Below are positions 1,596 to 21,331 of a DNA stretch of 32,602 nucleotides, one piece after another (the first letter of the stretch is position 1; each line of letters starts with the position of its first letter). This DNA comes from a virus. Its lineage: Duplodnaviria; Heunggongvirae; Uroviricota; Caudoviricetes. Below the pieces are notes generated by a model, which was not told where the DNA came from, made no database searches, and was given only the letters and a program-made list of their open reading frames with translations. The position numbers and the translations under genes are program-made. Location of the stretch: the IMG/VR virus record IMGVR_UViG_2698536533_000006. One strand, 5' to 3'.

Positions 1596-3683
1596 ATGTT
1601 TGCTTCAGTTAAAGAACTGGTTGGATTACCGGGGATGCCGGGAACGGAGCAAGGCGTTCGCTATTCAATCAGGAAGTATGCAACCAGCGAAACCAGCAGA
1701 CGCCGCAAGAAAGGCGCTAAAGGTTTTGAATACAGCATTGACTGTTTACCTGAAGTGACACAGCAGGCATTACGCGAACGTTATGCCCTGCAACTGATGA
1801 CGCAAAAAGCCGATGAATCACCGGCTCCGGTGGTGACAAAGGCCAGACGCTCGTCTGCCGTGGTTGATGCGGTGGAGGCATATCGCGGATCACCACAACT
1901 GATGGTCGAACGCCTCAATGCCCTGACTGAAAACCAGCGCCAGGTGGCAGACGCACGCATTGCGATCGTCAGTGAGGTGCTGAAATTCACGCAACAACCC
2001 GGTTTCAGCTGCGCTAAAGCTATCCGGTTCCTCGTTAACAGCCTGGCACGATCACAACTGGACGAGCGCATTGTGGCAATGGTTGAGACGGCGAACGCCA
2101 AAAAGGGAAACAGCCGCGCGTTGAGTGAAATCACGCTGAAACGCTGGATTGCGGCCTTTAACAAGGCACAGAACGCCGCTGAACGCCTGCTTTTACTGGC
2201 ACCGGGTAAACGCCAGGAAATAAAAGCCGAAGATATTAACTGGCTGCCCGAATTTCTGGCGCAGTATCGCCAGTCAAACGGCCGACCAATGACCGAGGCT
2301 TACGAGGATTTTGTTGCTGAATGGCAGCACCGGCACGCTGATGAGCCTTATATGCTCGATATCATGCCCTCTTATGACACCATTCGCCGCGCAATGAAGA
2401 AACTGCCGGAAGTGGTGAAACAAAAAGGCCGGGTAACTGGCAGTGAATACCGTCAGCTTGAGGGATTCACGCGCCGCGACTGGTCCAGAATGCCGGTGAA
2501 TTATGTCTGGATTGGTGACGGTCACGGCATGAAGCTGAAATGCGCGCACCCGGTTCACGGGCGGCCATTCGCACCGGAAGTGACCTTTGTTATCGACGGT
2601 GGCACGCGCTTTGTGGTGGGCTGGAGCCTTGACCTGGCTGAAAATGTTTTCGCCGTAGCCGGTGCCATACAGCACGGTATTCGCCATCATGGCAAACCGT
2701 TTCTGTATTACTCGGATAATGGCTCCGGGGAAACCGCCGACGTCCTGGATAAGGAGATTGTGGGGATACTGCCACGACTGGGGATTAATCACCCGACAGG
2801 GATTGCCGGTAATCCGCAGGGACGGGGCATTATCGAACGGCTTAACCGCACATTACCGATGCGCATAGCCCGTAAATACCGCACCTATTTCGGGAAAGGA
2901 GCAGATCGCGAGACGTTACGTAAAACCAACCGCGATTTACGCTCGGCATTCAGTGCCCTGCAACAGGGCAAACGGCTGAACGCCCGGCAGCAGTCAGCGA
3001 TGCGTGATTTACCGTCCTGGTCTGAACTGATTGATGCCATTCGTGACGGTGTTGAGTGGTACAACAACCGGCCGCACGATGAATTACCCATGAAGCCGAA
3101 CGGTAAACATTACAGCCCGGCGGAGTTCAGAAAAAAACGCCTGGCGGAAGAGGACACGGAAATTGAATGGCTGTCCGATGTTGAACTGCGGGATATGTTC
3201 CGGCCGATGGTGGAGCGCCCTGTAAGACGCTGTGAAATACGCTGGCTGAATAATATTTACTACGCGCCCGAGCTGCGTGACGAGCATGGCCGTAAGGTAC
3301 TTATCAGCTATGACATTCATGATGCCGAACGAATTACCGTGCGCCGCCCGGATGGCAGCGTGATTTGCGAGGCGGTATGGGACGGCAATAAACGCGAAGC
3401 CTTCCCTGTCAGCGCGGAATACTACAAACAGCAGCAGCGCCTTAAAGGCATGCGTAAACGCGCAGAGGAAAAAATCCGTGATGCCGAGGATGAGGTTGTC
3501 AACGTGCTGGAGCACAAGCCGCAGGAGCCCTGGCTGGAAAACATATACCGCCCTGTGGGTAATACGGTGACCGTTCAGCAACCGGTCGCTGACGATGAAC
3601 CTGATGAAGAATACGAGCGTAATTTCCAGCGGGGATTGCAACTGCTCGAAGCGAAATTAAAAGAAAGTGATCCGCTGGCCTGA
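1596..3683 (+). CDS. MuA-like DDE transposase
   Basis: 695 aa; N-terminus (SVKELVGLPGMPGTEQGVRYSIRKYA...KGAKGFEYSIDCLPEVTQQAL) resembles the MuA DNA-binding domain; size and position after ner match Mu A. Confidence 0.9.
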   Translation: MFASVKELVGLPGMPGTEQGVRYSIRKYATSETSRRRKKGAKGFEYSIDCLPEVTQQALRERYALQLMTQKADESPAPVVTKARRSSAVVDAVEAYRGSPQLMVERLNALTENQRQVADARIAIVSEVLKFTQQPGFSCAKAIRFLVNSLARSQLDERIVAMVETANAKKGNSRALSEITLKRWIAAFNKAQNAAERLLLLAPGKRQEIKAEDINWLPEFLAQYRQSNGRPMTEAYEDFVAEWQHRHADEPYMLDIMPSYDTIRRAMKKLPEVVKQKGRVTGSEYRQLEGFTRRDWSRMPVNYVWIGDGHGMKLKCAHPVHGRPFAPEVTFVIDGGTRFVVGWSLDLAENVFAVAGAIQHGIRHHGKPFLYYSDNGSGETADVLDKEIVGILPRLGINHPTGIAGNPQGRGIIERLNRTLPMRIARKYRTYFGKGADRETLRKTNRDLRSAFSALQQGKRLNARQQSAMRDLPSWSELIDAIRDGVEWYNNRPHDELPMKPNGKHYSPAEFRKKRLAEEDTEIEWLSDVELRDMFRPMVERPVRRCEIRWLNNIYYAPELRDEHGRKVLISYDIHDAERITVRRPDGSVICEAVWDGNKREAFPVSAEYYKQQQRLKGMRKRAEEKIRDAEDEVVNVLEHKPQEPWLENIYRPVGNTVTVQQPVADDEPDEEYERNFQRGLQLLEAKLKESDPLA

Positions 3684-3988
3684 AATAAAAAAATAACCCG
3701 AGGGGTGACTCAGGTTATTTGAGGTTTCAGTCTCNNNNNNNNNNNNNNNNNNNNNNNNNNNNNNNNNNNNNNNNNNNNNNNNNNNNNNNNNNNNNNNNNN
3801 NNNNNNNNNNNNNNNNNNNNNNNNNNNNNNNNNNNNNNNNNNNNNNNNNNNNNNNNNNNNNNNNNNNNNNNNNNNNNNNNNNNNNNNNNNNNNNNNNNNN
3901 NNNNNNNNNNNNNNNNNNNNNNNNNNNNNNNNNNNNNNNNNNNNNNNNNNNNNNNNNNNNNNNNNNNNNNNNNNNNNNNNNNNNNNNN

Positions 3989-6914: not shown

Positions 6915-7238
6915 NNNNNNNNNNNNNNNNNNNNNNNNNNNNNNNNNNNNNNNNNNNNNNNNNNNNNNNNNNNNNNNNNNNNNNNNNNNNNNNNNNNNNN
7001 NNNNNNNNNNNNNNNNNNNNNNNNNNNNNNNNNNNNNNNNNNNNNNNNNNNNNNNNNNNNNNNNNNNNNNNNNNNNNNNNNNNNNNNNNNNNNNNNNNNN
7101 NNNNNNNNNNNNNNNNNNNNNNNNNNNNNNNNNNNNNNNNNNNNNNNNNNNNNNNNNNNNNNNNNNNNNNNNNNNNNNNNNNNNNNNNNNNNNNNNNNNN
7201 NNNNNNNNNCTGCCGGGATATCTGCGGAGGTGGCGTAA

Positions 7239-9352: not shown

Positions 9353-9865
9353 ATGAATCGCGCTTCCCTGATTACCTTAATACATGTCGCAAAACGCGAT
9401 CTACAGCTTGACCATGATACCTATACATCCGCGCTGCTGGCAGCCACCGGCAAATCCAGTTGCCGTGATATGTCACCCGGTGAGTTATCCCGCGTGCTGG
9501 ATGTTTTCAAAAAACGCGGTTTTAAAGTGCGTCAGAAGCCGGTTAACCGGGCCTTAAAACCGGGTACGGTGACCGCCAAAATTCGCGCCATCTGGAAAGT
9601 GATGCACCGGCAGGGATTTATCTCTGATGGCGGGGAAACGGCCCTTAACCGCTGGGTGAAATCGCAGACGGCCGCGCAGAACGACGGCGAAGGTGTGGCT
9701 AACTGGCAGTGGCTGGAGCAACAACCCGCGCTGGCCTCTGATGTGCTGGAGCGTCTCAAACGCTGGCACCGCCGCAAAATGCTGGCAGCCCTGGATATGT
9801 CGGAACGTGCAGTGATGAGTTATGAGCGTGTTTGCAGGCTGTATGAAAAATCATTCCCCCGTTAA
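9353..9865 (+). CDS. gemA: GemA-like protein (Mu gp16 family)
   Basis: 170 aa; position immediately upstream of the Mor-like gene as in Mu; N-terminus (LITLIHVAKRDLQLDHDTYTSALLAATGKSS) fits my recollection of the gp16 family. Confidence 0.6.
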   Translation: MNRASLITLIHVAKRDLQLDHDTYTSALLAATGKSSCRDMSPGELSRVLDVFKKRGFKVRQKPVNRALKPGTVTAKIRAIWKVMHRQGFISDGGETALNRWVKSQTAAQNDGEGVANWQWLEQQPALASDVLERLKRWHRRKMLAALDMSERAVMSYERVCRLYEKSFPR

Positions 9866-9935
9866 CCCCAAATCCCGCCACAGCGCGGGATTTTTATTTT
9901 AAACTTGCCCTGTGTAATGATGACCGGAGGCGGGT

Positions 9936-10358
9936 ATGGCTGAAACACAGATGAGCATGTTTGGTGACAGCGAACAGCTGCACGCGCTGATTGACCGTCT
10001 GGATGATATTCCTGATGATGAGCTGAAAAAGAACTGGCCCGGCACGCTGCGGGACCTGGTTGATGTGATCAGTGCTGAACTGCACCGTCAGGGGATTGAA
10101 CCTGCTCAGGCGGGAATGCTTGCCCGTAAGGTTGCAGCCGCACAGGCCGGGTACATGGGCGGGCGTGGTTATTATCTCCCGGTCGGTGAATCCCTTTTCA
10201 CCGAACTGCGCAATAATGAAATTTTTTCCCGCTGGAGCCAGGGCGAAAAAATTGAAACCCTGCGCCGCCACTACCAGATGTCAGAGACGCAGATTTACTC
10301 CGTTATCCGCAACCAGCGTCGCCTGCATCAGGAACGCACGCAGCCACGGCTTTTCTGA
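9936..10358 (+). CDS. Mor/C-family transcriptional activator
   Basis: 140 aa; strong RBS GGAGG; acidic N-terminus and C-terminal HTH-like region (IETLRRHYQMSETQIYSVIRNQRRL) resembling Mu Mor and C. Confidence 0.75.
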   Translation: MAETQMSMFGDSEQLHALIDRLDDIPDDELKKNWPGTLRDLVDVISAELHRQGIEPAQAGMLARKVAAAQAGYMGGRGYYLPVGESLFTELRNNEIFSRWSQGEKIETLRRHYQMSETQIYSVIRNQRRLHQERTQPRLF

Positions 10359-10429
10359 TATTCCGCAAATCCTGCCCCCTTTTCCTCACGGTTACGCTGA
10401 CTCAGAGAACACCATGAGACAGCGTAACA
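10359..10429 (+). promoter_or_regulatory. Candidate Mor/C-dependent promoter region upstream of the lysis cassette
   Basis: 71-bp non-coding spacer between the activator gene and the endolysin gene; assignment is by position only, no motif confirmed. Confidence 0.25.
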
Positions 10430-10930
10430 ATGCCAAAACTCCCCGCACCCCTGCGTAAAAAGCTGATTGCCCTTGTTCTGGCCGGAGCCGGGACGTTCAC
10501 CATTGCCACGCACTACACCGGCTACTGGGAAGGGAAAGAAAACACCACGTACATTGATCCCACCGGCACCCCCACCATCTGTTACGGCCATACCGGCCCG
10601 GATGTGAAACCGGGGATGACAAAAACTGATGAAGAGTGTCTGGAGCTGCTGGAAAAGGACATGAAATGGGCCTTTGCGGCTATCGATCGTCATGTTCAGG
10701 TGCCGCTTACCCGTGGTCAGACGGTGGCGCTGGCCTCCTGGATTTTCTGGGCCGGTGAAACGAACTTTCGCAACTCCACGCTCCTGCGCCTTATCAATGC
10801 CGGGCAGATGCCCGCGTCCTGTAAGCAGTATATCCGCTGGATTTATTCAAAGGGGGTAAAACTCCCCGGTCTTGAGGCCCGCCGTTCGGCGGATGAATGG
10901 TTATGTCGTTACGATTTGCCGAAAGTCTGA
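10430..10930 (+). CDS. SAR endolysin (phage lysozyme, GH24-like, with N-terminal signal-anchor)
   Basis: 166 aa; hydrophobic N-terminus LIALVLAGAGTFTIA followed by a catalytic E-x8-D-x5-T-like segment (WEGKENTTYIDPTGTPT). Confidence 0.85.
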   Translation: MPKLPAPLRKKLIALVLAGAGTFTIATHYTGYWEGKENTTYIDPTGTPTICYGHTGPDVKPGMTKTDEECLELLEKDMKWAFAAIDRHVQVPLTRGQTVALASWIFWAGETNFRNSTLLRLINAGQMPASCKQYIRWIYSKGVKLPGLEARRSADEWLCRYDLPKV

Positions 10931-11042
10931 ACCGCTTCTGGCGACCGCTCATGATTGCGCTGCTGTGTGCCGTTGTGCTGCTGCGGGGTGTGCTGTGTCT
11001 GCGGTGAACAATCCCTTACCGGCCCTGATTGCCGGAGGCTGT

Positions 11043-11393
11043 ATGGCGGCGCTGGGGGTGATGAGCGTGCTGGCTGCCGTGGTATGGGGAATGCACCAGA
11101 AGACGCAGCGCCTTGAGGACAATAATCATGTGCTTGTGCGTGAACGGGACGAAGCCCGTCTGGTGCTGGCAAACCAGCAACGCACCCTGCAACTCATTTC
11201 ACAAATCAGCAAGGCGGCCACGAATGAAAAACAGCAGAACATGCAGCACAGCGAGGAACAGCAGAGCATTGTCCGCCGGTCACTGGCAACGGTGCCTGCT
11301 GCCGCTGTGCCTGTGCCTGATGATGTGGCTGACCGGGTGCGGCGGGCCGTCTGTGAAATACGTGCCGGTGAAGCCGGTGCCGATCCCCGCTGA
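11043..11393 (+). CDS. i-spanin (Rz-like inner-membrane spanin component)
   Basis: N-terminal TM segment (ALGVMSVLAAVVWGM) then a coiled-coil-like region; GGAGG before the ATG at 11043. Start is uncertain (upstream in-frame alternatives exist). Confidence 0.55.
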   Translation: MAALGVMSVLAAVVWGMHQKTQRLEDNNHVLVRERDEARLVLANQQRTLQLISQISKAATNEKQQNMQHSEEQQSIVRRSLATVPAAAVPVPDDVADRVRRAVCEIRAGEAGADPR

Positions 11394-11595
11394 ATGGCTG
11401 GCTGACTGCCTGGTCCCTCCCGCGCCGCAGCCGTTCACGTTTGGTGCATCGGTCACTTACAACCTGCAACTGCTGGCGGTGATTAAAAACTGCAACGTGG
11501 ACAAGGCCAGCATCCGCCGTCTGGAGACACAGCGACAGCATGAATTTACTGATATGGCCGGAACGACTGCTGTTCCGGCAGGAAAGACGAAGTAA
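11224..11595 (+). CDS. o-spanin (Rz1-like outer-membrane lipoprotein), begins inside the i-spanin gene in the +1 frame
   Basis: Lipobox LTGC after a hydrophobic stretch (CLLPLCLCLMMWLTGC) and a proline-rich mature region. Start is ATG 11224 or TTG 11269. Confidence 0.5.
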   Translation: MKNSRTCSTARNSRALSAGHWQRCLLPLCLCLMMWLTGCGGPSVKYVPVKPVPIPAEWLADCLVPPAPQPFTFGASVTYNLQLLAVIKNCNVDKASIRRLETQRQHEFTDMAGTTAVPAGKTK

Positions 11596-11605
11596 GGAAA
11601 AAGGT

Positions 11606-11833
11606 ATGGATGATTCAGATTGTGCTCAGGCAGTCATGGAGCGTGCAACAGAACGCGCCCTTTGTGACCGGCTGACACGTAAGCGCCGGGTGGCGGAGAC
11701 ACCGGGCAGGCGTGTATGCGCGGACTGCGGGGGTGACATTCCGGCTGCCCGTCTGGTTGCCGTGCCGGATGCCATCCGTTGTGTGAACTGCCAGAACATC
11801 ATGGAGGCCGGTCATGTGGGTCAGCATCGTTAA
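11606..11833 (+). CDS. DksA/TraR-family C4 zinc-finger protein
   Basis: 75 aa; CADCG...(19 aa)...CVNCQ four-cysteine finger; RBS AAGGAAAAAGG upstream. Confidence 0.65.
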   Translation: MDDSDCAQAVMERATERALCDRLTRKRRVAETPGRRVCADCGGDIPAARLVAVPDAIRCVNCQNIMEAGHVGQHR

Positions 11834-12125
11834 AGATTATGTCGTGCCGATCCTGTCGGCAACGGCCACAGCCGGGGGGATCTTCATGGCGCTGATGCGC
11901 AAAACCTTTGTCCCCCGCGAGGCCTTTGAAAAACTCTCCGACCGGGTTGAGCGGGTGGAGAGCCGGATTTCCGGCCTGCCCACGCAGCAGGAGGTGAACA
12001 GACTCAATATCGAAATCACCACCCTGCGCGGTGAGCTTAAGGCCACCAATGCCACCCTGAAATCCGTCTCCCATCAGAACGAACTGCTGCTGGAGCAGGC
12101 TGTAAGGAAAAAACACAATGAGTGA
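11814..12125 (+). CDS. Membrane-anchored coiled-coil protein (position of Mu gp25)
   Basis: 103 aa; N-terminal hydrophobic segment (VVPILSATATAGGIFMALM) followed by a heptad-like region; ATG overlaps the upstream gene. Confidence 0.5.
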   Translation: MWVSIVKDYVVPILSATATAGGIFMALMRKTFVPREAFEKLSDRVERVESRISGLPTQQEVNRLNIEITTLRGELKATNATLKSVSHQNELLLEQAVRKKHNE

Positions 12126-12408
12126 TTTCATTACTGAAGATCAGCGTCTTGTCATTCTGCGGTCGCTGGCGGATTACAACGGCGAACTGGGCGAATCCGT
12201 GCTTCAGGACTGCCTGGATGATTACGGTCACCGCGTGTCCCGCGACACCGTTCATACCCACATTGCCTGGCTTGCCGAGCAGGGACTGGTGCGTAAGCGC
12301 ACGCTTGTTAACGGTTATTTCATCGCTGAACTGACCGGCCGGGGTCAGGATGTGGCGGAAGGCCGCGCCACCGTTCCGGGTGTGAAGAAACCACGCGCAA
12401 GGGGGTAA
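12118..12408 (+). CDS. Hypothetical protein (96 aa), position of Mu gp26
   Basis: ATG overlaps the upstream stop (ATGA); no recognisable motif. Confidence 0.45.
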   Translation: MSDFITEDQRLVILRSLADYNGELGESVLQDCLDDYGHRVSRDTVHTHIAWLAEQGLVRKRTLVNGYFIAELTGRGQDVAEGRATVPGVKKPRARG

Positions 12409-12410
12409 CG

Positions 12411-12992
12411 ATGGATAAGCCAGCGCGTGGCCGTGTACGCAAGGTGGATTTGCTCCCCGACAGCATCCGTAAGCCGCTGCTGGAAATGCTGCGTGAAAAA
12501 CGTCTGACGCAGGTCCAGATCCGCGAGGAAATCAACCGTCTGATCCGTGAAGCAGGTCTGCCGGAAGAGCAGCAGCTCTCACCGGCGGCCATCAGCCGGG
12601 AAGCCTCCCGTAATGAGCTGATTGCCCGTAATCTGCGTGATTTACGCGAGCAGACAAAAGCCATGATGGCCGAACTGGGGGATAAGCCGACCGGTGAAAC
12701 CACGGCACTGATTCTGGAGATGTCCCGTGCCCTGATGTACCGCCGTCTGCGTGCCGCCACCGAATCCCTGAACAGCGACAGCGATGTGGATATGCGCCTT
12801 ATTAAGGACATCCTCCTGTCGGCACAGCGTGCAGAAAGTGCCGCCGAGCGCAGCATTAAGCGTGAAAAAGAAATCCGGGCCGCATTTGCTGAAGAGATGG
12901 CGAATGCGGTCACCGATGAGTTGCGCGGCGTGGATGGCATGAGCGAGCAGATCGAATTCCGTATCAGGCAGATGCTGCTGGGTAAGGCGTAG
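12411..12992 (+). CDS. Mu gp27-like protein, putative terminase small subunit
   Basis: 193 aa, immediately upstream of the large terminase gene; basic N-terminus. Assignment is by synteny and general resemblance. Confidence 0.55.
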   Translation: MDKPARGRVRKVDLLPDSIRKPLLEMLREKRLTQVQIREEINRLIREAGLPEEQQLSPAAISREASRNELIARNLRDLREQTKAMMAELGDKPTGETTALILEMSRALMYRRLRAATESLNSDSDVDMRLIKDILLSAQRAESAAERSIKREKEIRAAFAEEMANAVTDELRGVDGMSEQIEFRIRQMLLGKA

Positions 12993-13002
12993 GAGGTGAA
13001 TC

Positions 13003-13251
13003 ATGGCAACAGATAACCGCTCACTGATGAGCAGTGCCCATCAGAAAGCATTCAGTCTTGCAACACAGTTACCTCCTGAAACCATAAAGGTATGTCGTGA
13101 GTTGACTGAACTCAGCATTGCCGGGGAAATATCCCTGGAACAACTGCATTCGCTGCTGGCAGAGGCTGCCACTGATGAGTTGAGCGGCGTGGACGTGATG
13201 ACTGAAGAGCTTGAGTCCCGAATCAAAAGCATTCTGACAGGTAAAGCATGA
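13003..13251 (+). CDS. Small protein (82 aa) sharing its C-terminal motif with the upstream gp27-like protein
   Basis: C-terminus DELSGVDVMTEELESRIKSILTGKA versus gp27-like DELRGVDGMSEQIEFRIRQMLLGKA; stop overlaps the terminase start. Confidence 0.5.
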   Translation: MATDNRSLMSSAHQKAFSLATQLPPETIKVCRELTELSIAGEISLEQLHSLLAEAATDELSGVDVMTEELESRIKSILTGKA

Positions 13252-16504: not shown

Positions 16505-17832
16505 TTTAGGTTATGCCGCCACGCTTCCCTCAAAAGAGACGGTGGCATACTTCCGCGCCAAAGGGGCGCATATCAGCTGGAACTGGTTCGAAACAGACGC
16601 GGATGTTCATGCCCGCTCATTCACGGCAGCAAAAACGGCACGGCTGGATGTGGTAACCACATTACAGGCCGAAGTGCAGCGGGCCATTGATGAGGGGATT
16701 TCACAGAAAGAATTTATCCGCACACTGACGCCACGCCTGCAAAAGCTGGGATGGTGGGGAAAGCAGATTGTGGTGGACAGCGACGGTAACGCGGAAGAAG
16801 TGCAGCAGGGCAGTCCCCGTCGTCTGGCGCTGATTTACAACGTGAACACCCGTGTGGCTTACAATGCCGGGCGTTACACGCAGATGATGAACAACACGGA
16901 CACGCATCCGTTCTGGCAGTATGTGGCGGTCATGGACAGCCGTACCCGCCNNNNNNNNNNNNNNNNNNNNNNNNNNNNNNNNNNNNNNNNNNNNNNNNNN
17001 NNNNNNNNNNNNNNNNNNNNNNNNNNNNNNNNNNNNNNNNNNNNNNNNNNNNNNNNNNNNNNNNNNNNNNNNNNNNNNNNNNNNNNNNNNNNNNNNNNNN
17101 NNNNNNNNNNNNNNNNNNNNNNNNNNNNNNNNNNNNNNNNNNNNNNNNNNNNNNNNNNNNNNNNNNNNNNNNNNNNNNNNNNNNNNNNNNNNNNNNNNNN
17201 NNNNNGGCGCCAGAACCATGACACCGGATGTGGGCTGGTCATATAACCCCGGCTCGGCAGCGTTCGGCACAGACCAGGCGCTGATCCGCAAACTGATCGA
17301 GGTGAAAAGCCCGGCGTTACGGGAAATGGTGGTTCAGGAGATGAACAACAGCCCGGAGCGGCAGCTGGCGTTCCGCATCTGGGCAAAAAACATCATGCAG
17401 ACCCGGCGAGGTGGTAACGATATCCGCACGCTGGGCTTTATGACTGAAAGCATTGCGCAGGCAGTGGAAAGCCGGACGGGAACGCCACCGGCCCGCCTGC
17501 TGGCGATGAGCGGTAAAAATGTGCTCCATGCGGACAGTGTGAAACATCAGAATGACGGCATCGCTCTGACGCCGGAGGACTTCGGGCGCTTACCGGCAAT
17601 GCTGGCAAGGCCAAAAGCGGTACTGTGGGACAAACGGCACAACAATCTGATGTATATCGTGGAAAATCAGGATGGCAGTGTGCAGATTGCCGTTAATGCA
17701 CCGTACAGTCTGAAACGTCAGCCCGACAAACTGGATGTGATTGTGAATGCTTACCGGGTTATCAATATGGATAAGCTGAAATCGGATATCCGGGGCGGAA
17801 TGCTTGAGGTGCTGGAAGGACAAATTGATTAA
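16488..17832 (+). CDS. Head morphogenesis protein (Mu F / gp30-like), interrupted by N run 16951-17205
   Basis: Open frames on both sides of the gap with combined size near Mu gp30. Frame continuity across the gap cannot be verified. Confidence 0.6.
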
Positions 17833-17916
17833 CGGTCAGTGGCGGGGGTCGAACCCGCATACATGATCCACCCGGAGGCAGGCACCGACTTTACCAGTTA
17901 AGCGTACACTGACCGC
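17833..17916 (-). other. tRNA-like structured element (9-bp closing stem plus T-arm-like hairpin); not a canonical tRNA
   Basis: CGGTCAGTG (17833-17841) pairs with CACTGACCG (17908-17916); inner hairpin GCGGG-GGTCGAA-CCCGC reads GCGGGTTCGACCCCCGC on the minus strand. Confidence 0.3.
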
Positions 17917-21058: not shown

Positions 21059-21331
21059 NNNNNNNNNNNNNNNNNNNNNNNNNNNNNNNNNNNNNNNNNN
21101 NNNNNNNNNNNNNNNNNNNNNNNNNNNNNNNNNNNNNNNNNNNNNNNNNNNNNNNNNNNNNNNNNNNNNNNNNNNNNNNNNNNNNNNNNNNNNNNNNNNN
21201 NNNNNNNNNNNNNNNNNNNNNNNNNNNNNNNNNNNNNNNNNNNNNNNNNNNNNNNNNNNNNNNNNNNNNNNNNNNNNNNNNNNNNNNNNNNNNNNNNNNN
21301 NNNNNNNNNNNNNNNNNNNNNNNNNNNNNNN

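Follow-up and report, generated by a model that had tools for sequence, protein, structure and literature searches.

Lysis genes of a Mu-like Escherichia coli prophage: a cassette most likely without a holin, and a conserved small ORF within it

Introduction

Phage Mu lyses its host without a holin. Its gp22 is a SAR endolysin, gp23 and gp23.1 are the spanins, and gp25, a DUF2730 protein termed a ‘releasin’, is needed for gp22 to leave the membrane (Chamblee et al. 2022, PMC9239132). Holin-less, releasin-controlled lysis has been shown for this one phage. A different type of control is that of phage 21, where the S21 pinholin, encoded directly upstream of the SAR endolysin R21, controls its release. 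A further variation is provided by the Shewanella phage LambdaSo, in which Lcc6, a small protein with a single transmembrane domain (TMD), is needed for SAR-endolysin-based lysis besides the canonical parts (bioRxiv 10.1101/2024.01.23.576932).

The genes dealt with here are those of a late-operon lysis cassette in an E. coli Mu-like prophage, and the cassette is most likely holin-less and of the Mu style, a reading to which a probability of about 0.8 is attached. It is largely ordinary, being built like the known Mu system, and the new item in it is a conserved, unannotated candidate gene of 36 codons. The finding of the same design in a lineage so diverged from Mu supports the releasin strategy as one general among transposable phages, and the lineage offers natural variants for considering mechanism, namely an R21-like SAR segment preceded by a stronger basic cluster and a net-basic releasin tail. 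For annotation, the pertinent points are that RefSeq cuts the o-spanin lipoprotein signal and omits the conserved small ORF; otherwise there is little new.

The prophage and its late operon

The window (the whole stretch of 32,602 nucleotides that was analysed) contains five masked stretches and ends before the right end of the prophage. That the element hosting the cassette is a Mu-like prophage is apparent from GemA and Mor genes in the window and from a Mu transposase in a 99.6% identical prophage. Of 5426 complete E. coli genomes, 231 (about 4%) contain it, O157:H7 and other Shiga-toxin strains being among the carriers, and the hosts of the lineage are E. coli, Shigella and Citrobacter. 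No members of the lineage were found among the isolated phages searched, and tblastn against isolated phages with the small ORF as query gave only two Stx-phage records, both with an inserted copy of the Mu-like element. An endolysin-based scan of genome contigs yielded one locus, in Citrobacter braakii. The gene order of the cassette is retained in relatives down to 65% endolysin identity. PGAP reports a ‘tRNA-OTHER’ for a related prophage, but neither ARAGORN nor Rfam gave one in the window.

Gene by gene, the locus is syntenic with annotated Mu 21-27 (AF083977). The order 22, 23, 23.1, 24, 25 is that of Mu, the cassette comes after a C-type activator and before gp26, gp27 and the large terminase, and in both phages the late transcript (a putative one in the window) is without a holin. 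However, the identities of the proteins to their Mu counterparts are only 24-44%: 24% for the i-spanin (gp23), 44% for the o-spanin (gp23.1), 39% for the endolysin (gp22), and 33% over 94 residues for the DUF2730 protein (gp25; BLASTP E 2e-18). The middle-gene membrane proteins of Mu, gp19 and gp20, have no counterpart in the window prophage, which also has a single Mor/C regulator (no other Mor-family gene being present in the prophage) with 40% identity to Mu C and 28% to Mu Mor. Finally, the Mu endolysin and i-spanin genes overlap directly, whereas the window has the extra small ORF at this point. The features are collected in Table 1.

Table 1. Positions in the window of the cassette genes and of elements within or next to them
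Feature	Position	Strand	Basis or remark
Mor/C-family late transcription activator	9936..10358	+	Directly 5′ of cassette; Pfam Mor E 6.7e-31
Plys-like late promoter elements, putative	10368..10398	+	AATCC 10368-10372; -10-like TACGCT 10393-10398
SAR endolysin, GH24 muramidase	10430..10930	+	Pfam Phage_lysozyme PF00959 E 1e-36
SAR segment L12-Y29	10463-10516	+	After basic cluster K3/R9/K10/K11
Predicted catalytic residues	E34 10529-10531; D43 10556-10558; T49 10574-10576	+	E-x8-D-x5-T triad
Unannotated hydrophobic small ORF, candidate gene	10897..11007	+	36 codons; 34 from conserved ATG 10903; MVMSLRFAESLNRFWRPLMIALLCAVVLLRGVLCLR
i-spanin, Rz-like	10995..11393 (frame 10872-11393)	+	PHROG 214 E 1.4e-29
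o-spanin lipoprotein, LysC/Rz1-like	11224..11595	+	PF23793 LysC E 3.8e-17
TraR/DksA-family C4 zinc-finger protein	11606..11833	+	PF01258 E 8e-12; Mu gene 24 position
DUF2730 protein, Mu gp25 releasin homologue	11814..12125	+	PF10805 E 1.2e-22; PHROG 736 E 2.6e-32
DUF2730 TMD V10-M28	11841-11897	+	KD 1.80, hydropathy scan
DUF2730 junction motif R29-K30	11898-11903	+	M-R-[RK]-[ST]-F conserved in 7 homologues

Between the activator and endolysin genes, the AATCC and TACGCT elements line up with the C-dependent late promoter annotated in Mu and have been kept in six relatives, and a sigma-70 consensus promoter was not found in this region. A Plys-like late promoter is predicted to lie here, 5′ of the endolysin gene.

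The endolysin and its N-terminal segment

Among 60 endolysin homologues E34 is invariant, and conservation of D43 and T49 is 90% or more. Segment L12-Y29 is weakly hydrophobic, with half of its residues (9 of 18) being Ala, Gly or Thr, and the pattern of basic residues followed by a weakly hydrophobic stretch is maintained at the N-terminus of the homologues. The best 19-residue Kyte-Doolittle mean is 1.39, as against 1.09 for Mu gp22 and 2.11 for R21. The segment has two Gly where gp22 has a six-Gly run, and it resembles that of R21. The closest solved structures are those of phage 21 R21 and DLP12 RrrD, which have the same catalytic triad, the best being R21 (3HDE; E 2.9e-25, residues 5-161 aligned). 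An AF2 model of the endolysin (pLDDT 93.9) superposes on full-length R21 (3HDE) and on RrrD (4ZPU) with a TM of 0.85-0.86 and an rmsd of 1.9 Å over 161 columns. In it the N-terminal segment forms two helices packed into the enzyme, directly before catalytic E34.

The position of this segment in the model is pertinent to whether it could be a cleavable Sec signal peptide, with the endolysin being secreted in soluble and active form. Small residues that could be signal peptidase sites can be read from the sequence (A18-G19-A20 and T24-I25-A26), but such cleavage is very improbable. In alignment the segment corresponds to the SAR domain of R21, which is not cleaved, residues 1-30 are modelled at a pLDDT of 84-97, and a constitutively secreted active muramidase would kill the cell upon late gene expression. 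In addition, the model fits the SAR-less form of R21 (3HDF) much worse than the full-length protein (TM 0.60, rmsd 4.4 Å), and that truncated form is said to have been described by Sun and colleagues in 2009 as an inactive conformation. As the segment is modelled as part of the enzyme and superposes on full-length R21, a cleaved signal peptide is argued against, and retention of the segment as part of the folded, active enzyme is indicated by the model. The earlier note had seen an endolysin with an N-terminal signal-anchor here and had named a cleavable signal peptide as what would speak against it; the GH24 match, the triad, the basic cluster and the character of L12-Y29 all fit a SAR endolysin, and the modelled fold argues against the other.

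The releasin homologue

The PF10805 match of the DUF2730 protein extends over its residues 6-97, corresponding to profile positions 3-101 of 102. Its gene is the fifth after that of the endolysin when the small ORF is counted, otherwise the fourth, and all relatives examined have it at this place in the cassette. The predicted topology of the protein, whose basis is the positive-inside rule only, is N-out and C-in with a single TMD, and the coiled-coil-like domain that follows the TMD would be cytoplasmic. Significant similarity to Mu gp25 is the criterion for a type I releasin (PMC9239132), and the window protein would, by its signature, its gp25 similarity, its TMD-RK junction and its position, belong to that type. 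The view in the earlier note that a membrane-anchored coiled-coil protein stands in the position of Mu gp25 is confirmed by domain, identity and gene order, and its statement that gp25 has been proposed to promote release of the SAR endolysin was correct, this being the ‘releasin’ activity of Chamblee et al. 2022 (PMC9239132).

In one respect the two proteins diverge. The cytoplasmic domain of the window protein has 11 acidic and 14 basic residues among 75 (net +3), whereas that of gp25 is slightly acidic (12 acidic and 11 basic of 74). Net acidity of this domain has been described for gp25 but does not define the family. With a net-basic tail, the window protein is a misfit with the ‘acidic microenvironment’, or charge-neutralisation, model.

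Proposed course of lysis and the possibility of self-release

In the course of events proposed, the Mor/C-family activator would switch on the Plys-like promoter, and a single predicted transcript would cover the endolysin gene, the small ORF, the i- and o-spanin genes, the TraR-like and DUF2730 genes and the packaging genes. Sec would export the GH24 endolysin, whose SAR segment would tether the inactive enzyme to the inner membrane with the basic cluster on the cytoplasmic side. The DUF2730 protein, with its RK junction, would help the SAR segment to leave the bilayer, and the freed segment would refold into the enzyme body in the manner of R21, with E34/D43/T49 then becoming active and the peptidoglycan being degraded. 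The i-spanin in the inner membrane and the o-spanin lipoprotein in the outer membrane would then disrupt the outer membrane. The topologies proposed, and the non-cleavage of the SAR segment, are drawn from hydropathy, the positive-inside rule, homology and predicted structure.

Dependence of the window endolysin on the window DUF2730 protein is an extrapolation from Mu, because the SAR segment is unlike that of gp22 and is R21-like. R21 itself releases spontaneously or with its pinholin. An endolysin that is self-releasing, like R21 or P1 Lyz, with its accumulation alone timing lysis and the DUF2730 protein dispensable or otherwise employed, would be in keeping with a SAR composition and fold nearer to R21 than to gp22, and with the net-basic tail of the DUF2730 protein. 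In other Mu-like phages DUF2730 proteins also accompany cytoplasmic endolysins, which are without SAR domains (PMC9239132), so the function of the family may exceed SAR release, and Mu with a 25::cam mutation is still able to lyse its host, taking about 3 h (PMC9239132). Self-release is nevertheless unlikely. Whereas in gp22 K6/K7 confer gp25 dependence, the two residues being sufficient to lock the SAR domain until gp25 acts (PMC9239132), in the window endolysin four basic residues precede the SAR segment and three of them, R9/K10/K11, abut it in parallel to K6/K7. The invariable position of the DUF2730 gene in the relatives also counts against it, as does the ability of gp25 to raise the release of unrelated SAR endolysins (PMC9239132).

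Spanins and the zinc-finger gene

The i-spanin has an N-terminal TMD at about residues 9-33 (IAGGCMAALGVMSVLAAVV; KD 2.22 by hydropathy scan), followed by a domain predicted to be helical and periplasmic. Its start is most likely GTG 10995 and not ATG 11043, to judge from several features of the locus and its relatives. GTG 10995 is the PGAP start in the 99.6% identical prophage, an ATG is at the same position in Citrobacter-type loci, the equivalent start is the one chosen by gene callers in the 68-71% identical loci (L044-L046), and an invariant GGGGT/GAGGT is present 6 nt upstream. The i-spanin that the earlier note placed at 11043..11393 stands as an i-spanin, with its PHROG 214 match and one TMD, and gives way only as to its start. 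A longer form (from TTG 10872 or ATG 10893, or the 142-aa ‘endopeptidase’ of PGAP in O157) was rejected, since substitutions in 10931-10994 are mostly non-synonymous in that frame (pN/pS 1.6-4.9; 18/12/7 variable sites by codon position).

The o-spanin has the lipobox LTGC, with Cys39 encoded at 11338-11340 and the next residue being Gly, not Asp. Relatives of the O157 (E. coli) and Citrobacter types keep both ATG 11224 and the initial M-K-N; the PGAP/RefSeq LysC start at 11353 leaves out the lipobox. The o-spanin frame is +1 relative to that of the i-spanin ((11224-10995) mod 3 = 1), and the two genes share 170 nt, with the o-spanin gene continuing 202 nt beyond the i-spanin stop. The lipoprotein and its +1 frame had been recognised at the outset, but the description ‘nested’ does not hold: the genes are overlapped, as in P2 lysB/lysC and Mu 23/23.1, in contrast to the embedded lambda type. 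In P2 LysB/LysC and lambda Rz/Rz1 there is likewise an inner-membrane subunit with a TMD and an outer-membrane lipoprotein in the +1 frame.

The gene after the spanins, earlier read as of DksA/TraR type, proves to be so, its product exceeding the cut-offs of both PF01258 (45.4 bits; cut-off 24.9) and TIGR02419 (69.6 bits; cut-off 59.7), and a gene of this type is conserved at its position in L045-L047. The finger is recognisable in the window protein; all that Mu gp24 has in common with it is the spacing of the Cys residues, an identical CxxC-x17-CxxC. As a TraR homologue Mu gp24 is marginal (BLASTP E 0.047, with no Pfam hit).

The search for a holin

A hydropathy scan over all six frames, taking in the 323 ORFs of at least 30 aa in the window, gave none with two or more TMDs on the strand that carries the phage genes. 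In the 99.6% identical prophage, the PGAP genes looked at (those of the early region, the lysis cassette and the right end) included none with a multi-TMD product, the sole extra TMD protein in its right end (outside the window) being a 60-aa DUF1378 protein. The window is without a gene such as that for S21 upstream of its endolysin gene. In a non-Mu phage, a relative of this endolysin at 50% identity is immediately preceded by a holin gene; a holin, where the family makes use of one, can thus be recognised. The view in the earlier note that no canonical multi-TM holin is visible survives this re-analysis, in which no classical holin emerged. The only extra hydrophobic ORF is the small one, and judged from its sequence it is not a classical holin, its hydrophobic run being 13 residues and a hydrophilic tail being lacking.

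A conserved small ORF between the endolysin and i-spanin genes

The small ORF shares 34 nt with the 3′ end of the endolysin gene and 13 nt with the 5′ end of that for the i-spanin, its stop being at 11005-11007. In 27 distinct relatives it is open and ends at the same place with its length unaltered, and it is also open in loci at 68-71% endolysin identity; its frame, length and stop are conserved in all relatives that have a gap between lys and the i-spanin gene. Mu and L047 lack it. In a word-indexed search of 5.8 billion clusters it turned up as a called protein only 7 times, always near-identical, and for distant homologues an exhaustive profile search gave none, its yield being P0080, a spurious repeat protein, and one member of the family itself. 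There was no match in Pfam, PHROG or NCBIfam, including the holin families in Pfam and PHROGs. Mu gp20 (39 aa, one TMD) was considered as a relative and rejected (hhalign probability 0.1%). The small ORF had been overlooked in the earlier note.

The substitutions in the interval fit coding in the frame of the small ORF. Counted by codon position, the variable sites are 12/7/18 in this frame as against 18/12/7 in the i-spanin frame (Fisher p 0.007), and pN/pS is 0.23-0.81 as against 0.74-4.9 in the other frames. The pattern W-R-P...L-L...R-G-x-L-W-L is maintained across clades.

With a hydrophobic core present in its predicted product, the small ORF could be considered for the missing membrane component, whether as a minimal holin, a pinholin-like or depolarising factor, or a release co-factor, and a peptide that is the missing inner-membrane component would mean that the cassette is not truly holin-less. 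Conservation of frame, length and stop, the coding-like substitutions, and the position and translational link between the endolysin and i-spanin genes are in favour, and in Lcc6 of LambdaSo a small accessory lysis factor with a single TMD is already known. The relevance of Lcc6 is to the small ORF only, beside which it is set by description and not by sequence; it differs in having 65 aa with a 43-aa cytoplasmic tail, in being encoded far from the lysis genes and in working alongside a pinholin. However, a role as the missing component is decidedly unlikely. The hydrophobic run is uninterrupted for only 13 residues, between R16 and R30, there is no hydrophilic, charged C-terminal tail in the style of holins, and the invariant R30-G31 codons are also the ribosome-binding site of the i-spanin. 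The peptide is under no more than moderate selection (pN/pS reaching 0.8 between clades), an obvious ribosome-binding site upstream of the small ORF was not found, no homologue has a known function, and Mu and L047 do without it.

A different type of role would be as a bridge for translational coupling only, with ribosomes from the endolysin gene re-initiating and being led to the weak GTG of the i-spanin, and the peptide being functionless. Such coupling is suggested by the way in which the small ORF begins before the endolysin stop and ends after the start of the i-spanin, and the direct overlap of lys and the i-spanin gene does the same job in Mu and L047. In addition, between the E. coli and Citrobacter types pS is 0.22 in the interval but 0.82 in the adjacent lys, and this unusually low synonymous divergence suggests constraint at the nucleotide level. 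Against a functionless peptide, amino acids are conserved where synonymous sites are saturated (L044 versus L046, pS 0.80 and pN 0.21), the sequence pattern just described persists across clades, and conserved RNA structure was not found across the lys/i-spanin junction (fold z-score +0.9, consensus -2.2 kcal/mol, almost no covariation). A bridge and nothing else is possible, though doubtful.

It may also be, and this is put forward only tentatively, that the small ORF encodes a real inner-membrane peptide active in lysis, which would either tune the release or the timing of the SAR endolysin together with the releasin, or be a minimal depolarising trigger. If so, the E. coli, Shigella and Citrobacter lineage would use a four-part inner-membrane step that Mu lacks.

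Gene order and correspondence with Mu

In gene identities, order and architecture the cassette at 10430-12125 is a counterpart of the Mu lysis region, and the probability that it is a Mu-type holin-less cassette, working through a SAR endolysin, a releasin and spanins, is put at roughly four in five. The updated Mu record runs C activator, Plys, gp22 ('SAR endolysin'), gp23 ('i-spanin'), gp23.1 ('o-spanin'), gp24, gp25 ('releasin'), gp26, gp27 and large terminase, and the window proteins match those of Mu one-to-one. Two elements kept in relatives, AATCC and the -10-like hexamer TACGCT, line up with the Plys annotated in Mu and suggest a Plys-like promoter upstream of the endolysin gene.

The cassette is real and was correctly interpreted; the Mu literature already accounts for it. 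Mu is holin-less, with genes 19, 20 and 25 not DNP-triggerable and lysis delayed by DNP; gp22 was shown experimentally to be a SAR endolysin, and its release requires gp25, a dependence that comes from K6 and K7 beside the SAR domain (Chamblee et al. 2022, PMC9239132). The earlier note's account of gp25 as a promoter of SAR endolysin release accords with that paper. What is added is modest: evidence that a common but diverged lineage of E. coli prophages shares the releasin design, corrections to gene starts, and a small ORF that is conserved.

Features of the lysis cassette and its flanks, with identity to Mu proteins
Feature	Position	Strand	Basis	Mu counterpart, identity
GemA	9353-9865, directly upstream region of cassette		Pfam	
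Terminator-like hairpin	9870-9893, 3' of GemA			
Mor/C-family activator	9936-10358, upstream of endolysin		Pfam	C, 40%
GH24 endolysin	10430-10930		PF00959, E 1e-36	gp22, 39%
Small ORF, 36 codons (34 from ATG 10903), encoding MVMSLRFAESLNRFWRPLMIALLCAVVLLRGVLCLR	10897-11007	+	unannotated, hydrophobic	
Rz-like i-spanin	start GTG 10995 (likely)		PHROG 214, E 1.4e-29; one strong TMD by hydropathy	gp23, 24%
LysC/Rz1-like o-spanin	start ATG 11224, +1 frame of i-spanin		PF23793, E 3.8e-17	gp23.1, 44%
TraR/DksA C4 zinc finger	11606-11833		above curated cut-offs in Pfam and NCBIfam	
DUF2730 protein	11814-12125		full-length match, E 1.2e-22; N-terminal TMD by hydropathy	gp25, 33%
gp26-like protein				gp26, 63%
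gp27-like protein (small terminase)	downstream of cassette		Pfam	gp27, 56%

The endolysin and its putative releasin

An N-terminal signal-anchor on the endolysin, as claimed in the earlier note, fits a GH24 protein that begins MPKLPAPLRKK, with four basic residues, and continues with LIALVLAGAGTFTIATHY, a weakly hydrophobic stretch of 18 residues of which half are Ala, Gly or Thr. Its hydropathy maximum over 19 residues is 1.39 (1.09 for Mu gp22 and 2.11 for R21, the phage 21 SAR endolysin). The alternative, a cleaved signal peptide, was tested indirectly, through structure. Of the solved structures, full-length R21 (3HDE) and RrrD, its homologue from E. coli DLP12, are nearest in sequence, and the alignment begins at residue 5, thus covering the N-terminal segment. 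An AlphaFold2 model built with 60 homologues, among which E34 of the E34-x8-D43-x5-T49 triad is invariant and D43 and T49 are at least 90% conserved, has a mean pLDDT of 93.9 (84-97 for residues 1-30), with helices 6-17 and 22-34 running into the catalytic Glu. It superposes on full-length R21 and RrrD with TM 0.85-0.86 and rmsd 1.9 Å over 161 columns, and much more poorly on the SAR-less R21 structure 3HDF (TM 0.60, rmsd 4.4 Å). On this model the segment is predicted to belong to the mature fold, as it does in R21, rather than to be a leader that is removed, so that signal cleavage would probably not occur.

The membrane-anchored protein had been likened by position to Mu gp25, a placement borne out by gene order and by the pairwise match (E 2e-18). 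For DUF2730 the prototype is gp25, whose TMD has N-out/C-in topology and whose junction motif is RR or RK (Chamblee et al. 2022, PMC9239132). The window protein has a TMD at V10-M28 with R29-K30 immediately after it, and seven homologues keep the motifs M-R-[RK]-[ST]-F and SHQ-x-[EQ]-L-[LM]-L-E. Together with R9-K10-K11 directly adjoining the endolysin's SAR segment, this junction supports the Mu-type interpretation; the topologies would presumably be those of Mu, and we infer, with more reserve than for anything else here, that the endolysin depends on the DUF2730 protein. Two differences from Mu matter for the mechanism: the SAR segment is R21-like whereas that of Mu is Gly-rich, and the DUF2730 cytoplasmic domain (11898-12122) has 11 acidic and 14 basic residues, net +3, whereas that of gp25 is slightly acidic. 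The basic charge fits poorly with the 'acidic microenvironment' model considered for gp25.

The zinc-finger gene, likewise recognized in the earlier note, stands where Mu has its uncharacterised gene 24 (3525-3719 of the Mu record). Mu gp24 falls below every threshold of the Pfam TraR models, and shares CxxC-x17-CxxC spacing with the window protein (BLASTP E 0.047); going by this likeness, gp24 could be a degenerate form of a TraR-type protein that binds RNA polymerase.

Search for a holin

Re-analysis, like the first reading, yielded no recognisable holin: among the 323 ORFs of 30 aa or longer in the unmasked sequence of the window, hydropathy gave none on the coding strand of the phage with more than one TMD, and nothing there corresponds to gp19 (4 TMD) or gp20, the membrane proteins of Mu's middle genes. 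As the window ends before the prophage right end, that end was examined in the prophage of E. coli strain 102651, whose PGAP genes were checked for the early region, lysis cassette and right end. Besides the i-spanin and DUF2730 proteins, these encode two early hypothetical proteins with weak internal hydrophobic stretches, and a single other membrane protein, 60-aa DUF1378 with one N-terminal TMD. In a non-Mu phage with a 50% identical endolysin, a Phage_holin_2_4 gene lies immediately upstream, and so a holin is easily recognised where this endolysin family uses one.

The DUF1378 gene is in a DUF6645-DUF1378-DUF826 block (6433-9380 in L005, the 102651 prophage sequence, outside the window) that precedes com/mom; the three families also occur in lambdoid prophages. 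DUF6645 is 684 aa, and the DUF1378 TMD is followed by a charged tail. In layout it matches the LambdaSo accessory lysis factor Lcc6 (a TMD with a cytoplasmic tail of ~40 aa).

Spanin genes and their starts

The i-spanin gene does follow the endolysin gene, with a start that is most likely GTG 10995 and not ATG 11043 as had been proposed. PGAP picks that GTG in the 99.6% identical prophage, Citrobacter-type relatives have ATG at the homologous codon, gene callers choose the same codon in loci with 68-71% endolysin identity, and an invariant GGGGT/GAGGT lies 6 nt upstream. For the o-spanin the earlier choice of ATG 11224 stands, being conserved across E. coli and Citrobacter types. RefSeq/PGAP start LysC at a GTG (window 11353; 2954-3196 in L003, a locus annotated by PGAP), after the lipobox Cys, giving an 80-aa product without signal peptide or lipobox, and metagenome gene callers truncate it likewise (3909-4112 in the relative L045). 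The lipobox is LTGC, with Cys39 followed by Gly. Though rightly placed in the +1 frame, the o-spanin gene is overlapped rather than nested: its first 170 nt lie over the end of the i-spanin gene and the other 202 nt beyond that gene's stop, an arrangement shared with Mu 23/23.1. The P2 lysB/lysC genes are also overlapped.

A conserved small ORF

The sole unexplained part of the cassette is a small ORF that bridges the gap from the endolysin stop (10930) to the start of the i-spanin gene. Of its two candidate starts, ATG 10897 falls within the codons for the conserved DEWLC of the endolysin and ATG 10903 is the more conserved; the TGA (11005-11007) is 10 nt past the i-spanin GTG. It is open, with constant length and stop, in 27 of 27 distinct sequences (E. 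coli, IMG/VR, Citrobacter) and also open in metagenomic loci with 68-71% identical endolysins (MAMYIRPPQSQLSRLWRPVTLALLVFVLFMRGVLWLG, VAMYVRLAESRLSQYWRAVTLGLLVFVLVLRGGLWLG); frame, length and stop are conserved in all relatives having the gap. It is absent from Mu and a 65% identical relative, where the i-spanin gene directly overlaps the endolysin stop.

Selection on a peptide is one reading. In the stretch overlapping no other gene end, variable sites at codon positions 1/2/3 number 12/7/18 in its frame (third-position enrichment, p = 0.007) and 18/12/7 in the i-spanin frame. Nei-Gojobori pN/pS is 0.23-0.81, as against 0.74-4.9 in the other two frames, the clearest pair being relatives L044 and L046 (pS 0.80, pN 0.21), and no RNA structure explaining the conservation was found. 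Alternatively, the ORF may be mainly a translational-coupling bridge, given an uninterrupted hydrophobic run of only 13 residues, invariant Arg30-Gly31 codons that are also the i-spanin ribosome-binding site, unusually low synonymous divergence between E. coli and Citrobacter types, and no clear ribosome-binding site upstream of its own. Lacking the hydrophilic tail of holins, it is not a classical holin.

Searches of Pfam, PHROG and NCBIfam gave no family match, and 1.84 billion representatives no distant relative. Only a handful of protein calls of the ORF exist, one of them named 'Uncharacterised protein [Shigella sonnei]'. Single-nucleotide indels fuse it to the endolysin in two database entries (L030, P0007) and to the i-spanin TMD in another (P0006).

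Prophage context

The window covers the greater part of an E. coli prophage that is Mu-like and transposable. Its stretch 9900-12450 shares 99.6% identity with the prophage of strain 102651. Of 5426 complete E. coli genomes, 231 carry this stretch at 80% identity or more, and many of these are of O157:H7 strains. Among deposited phage records, besides weak matches around gp26/gp27 to Mu, D108 and SfMu, only two match, both of Stx phages with an 'inserted Bacteriophage Mu-like phage'. Between 9353 and 10430 the order is GemA, hairpin, Mor/C gene and endolysin gene. The Mor/C gene is the only regulator of its family, with C rather than Mor as its nearer Mu relative, and Mu genes 18-20 lack counterparts, all of which suggests a simpler early-to-late transcription cascade than the Mor-then-C of Mu.

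Five N-masked runs (1330-1457, 3735-3988, 6915-7209, 16951-17205 and 21059-21331) leave the cassette untouched. PGAP marks a 'tRNA-OTHER' between the virion morphogenesis and minor head genes of the near-identical prophage (L005 26063-26150, ~ window 17813-17900, minus strand), where ARAGORN and Rfam gave nothing in the window. Between gp27 and the large terminase, an 82-aa hypothetical ORF (13003-13251, +) ends in ELSGVDVMTEELESRIKSILTGKA, repeating the gp27 C-terminus ELRGVDGMSEQIEFRIRQMLLGKA, and looks like a partial duplication; the O157-type variant is without it. At the left edge an IS66 Orf2/TnpB gene (196-519, +; PF05717, E 1e-37) precedes a repressor-like HTH gene (753-1298, -), and the prophage in this genome seems to lie beside or within an IS66-family element. 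The copy in strain 102651 interrupts a lateral-flagellar motA gene.
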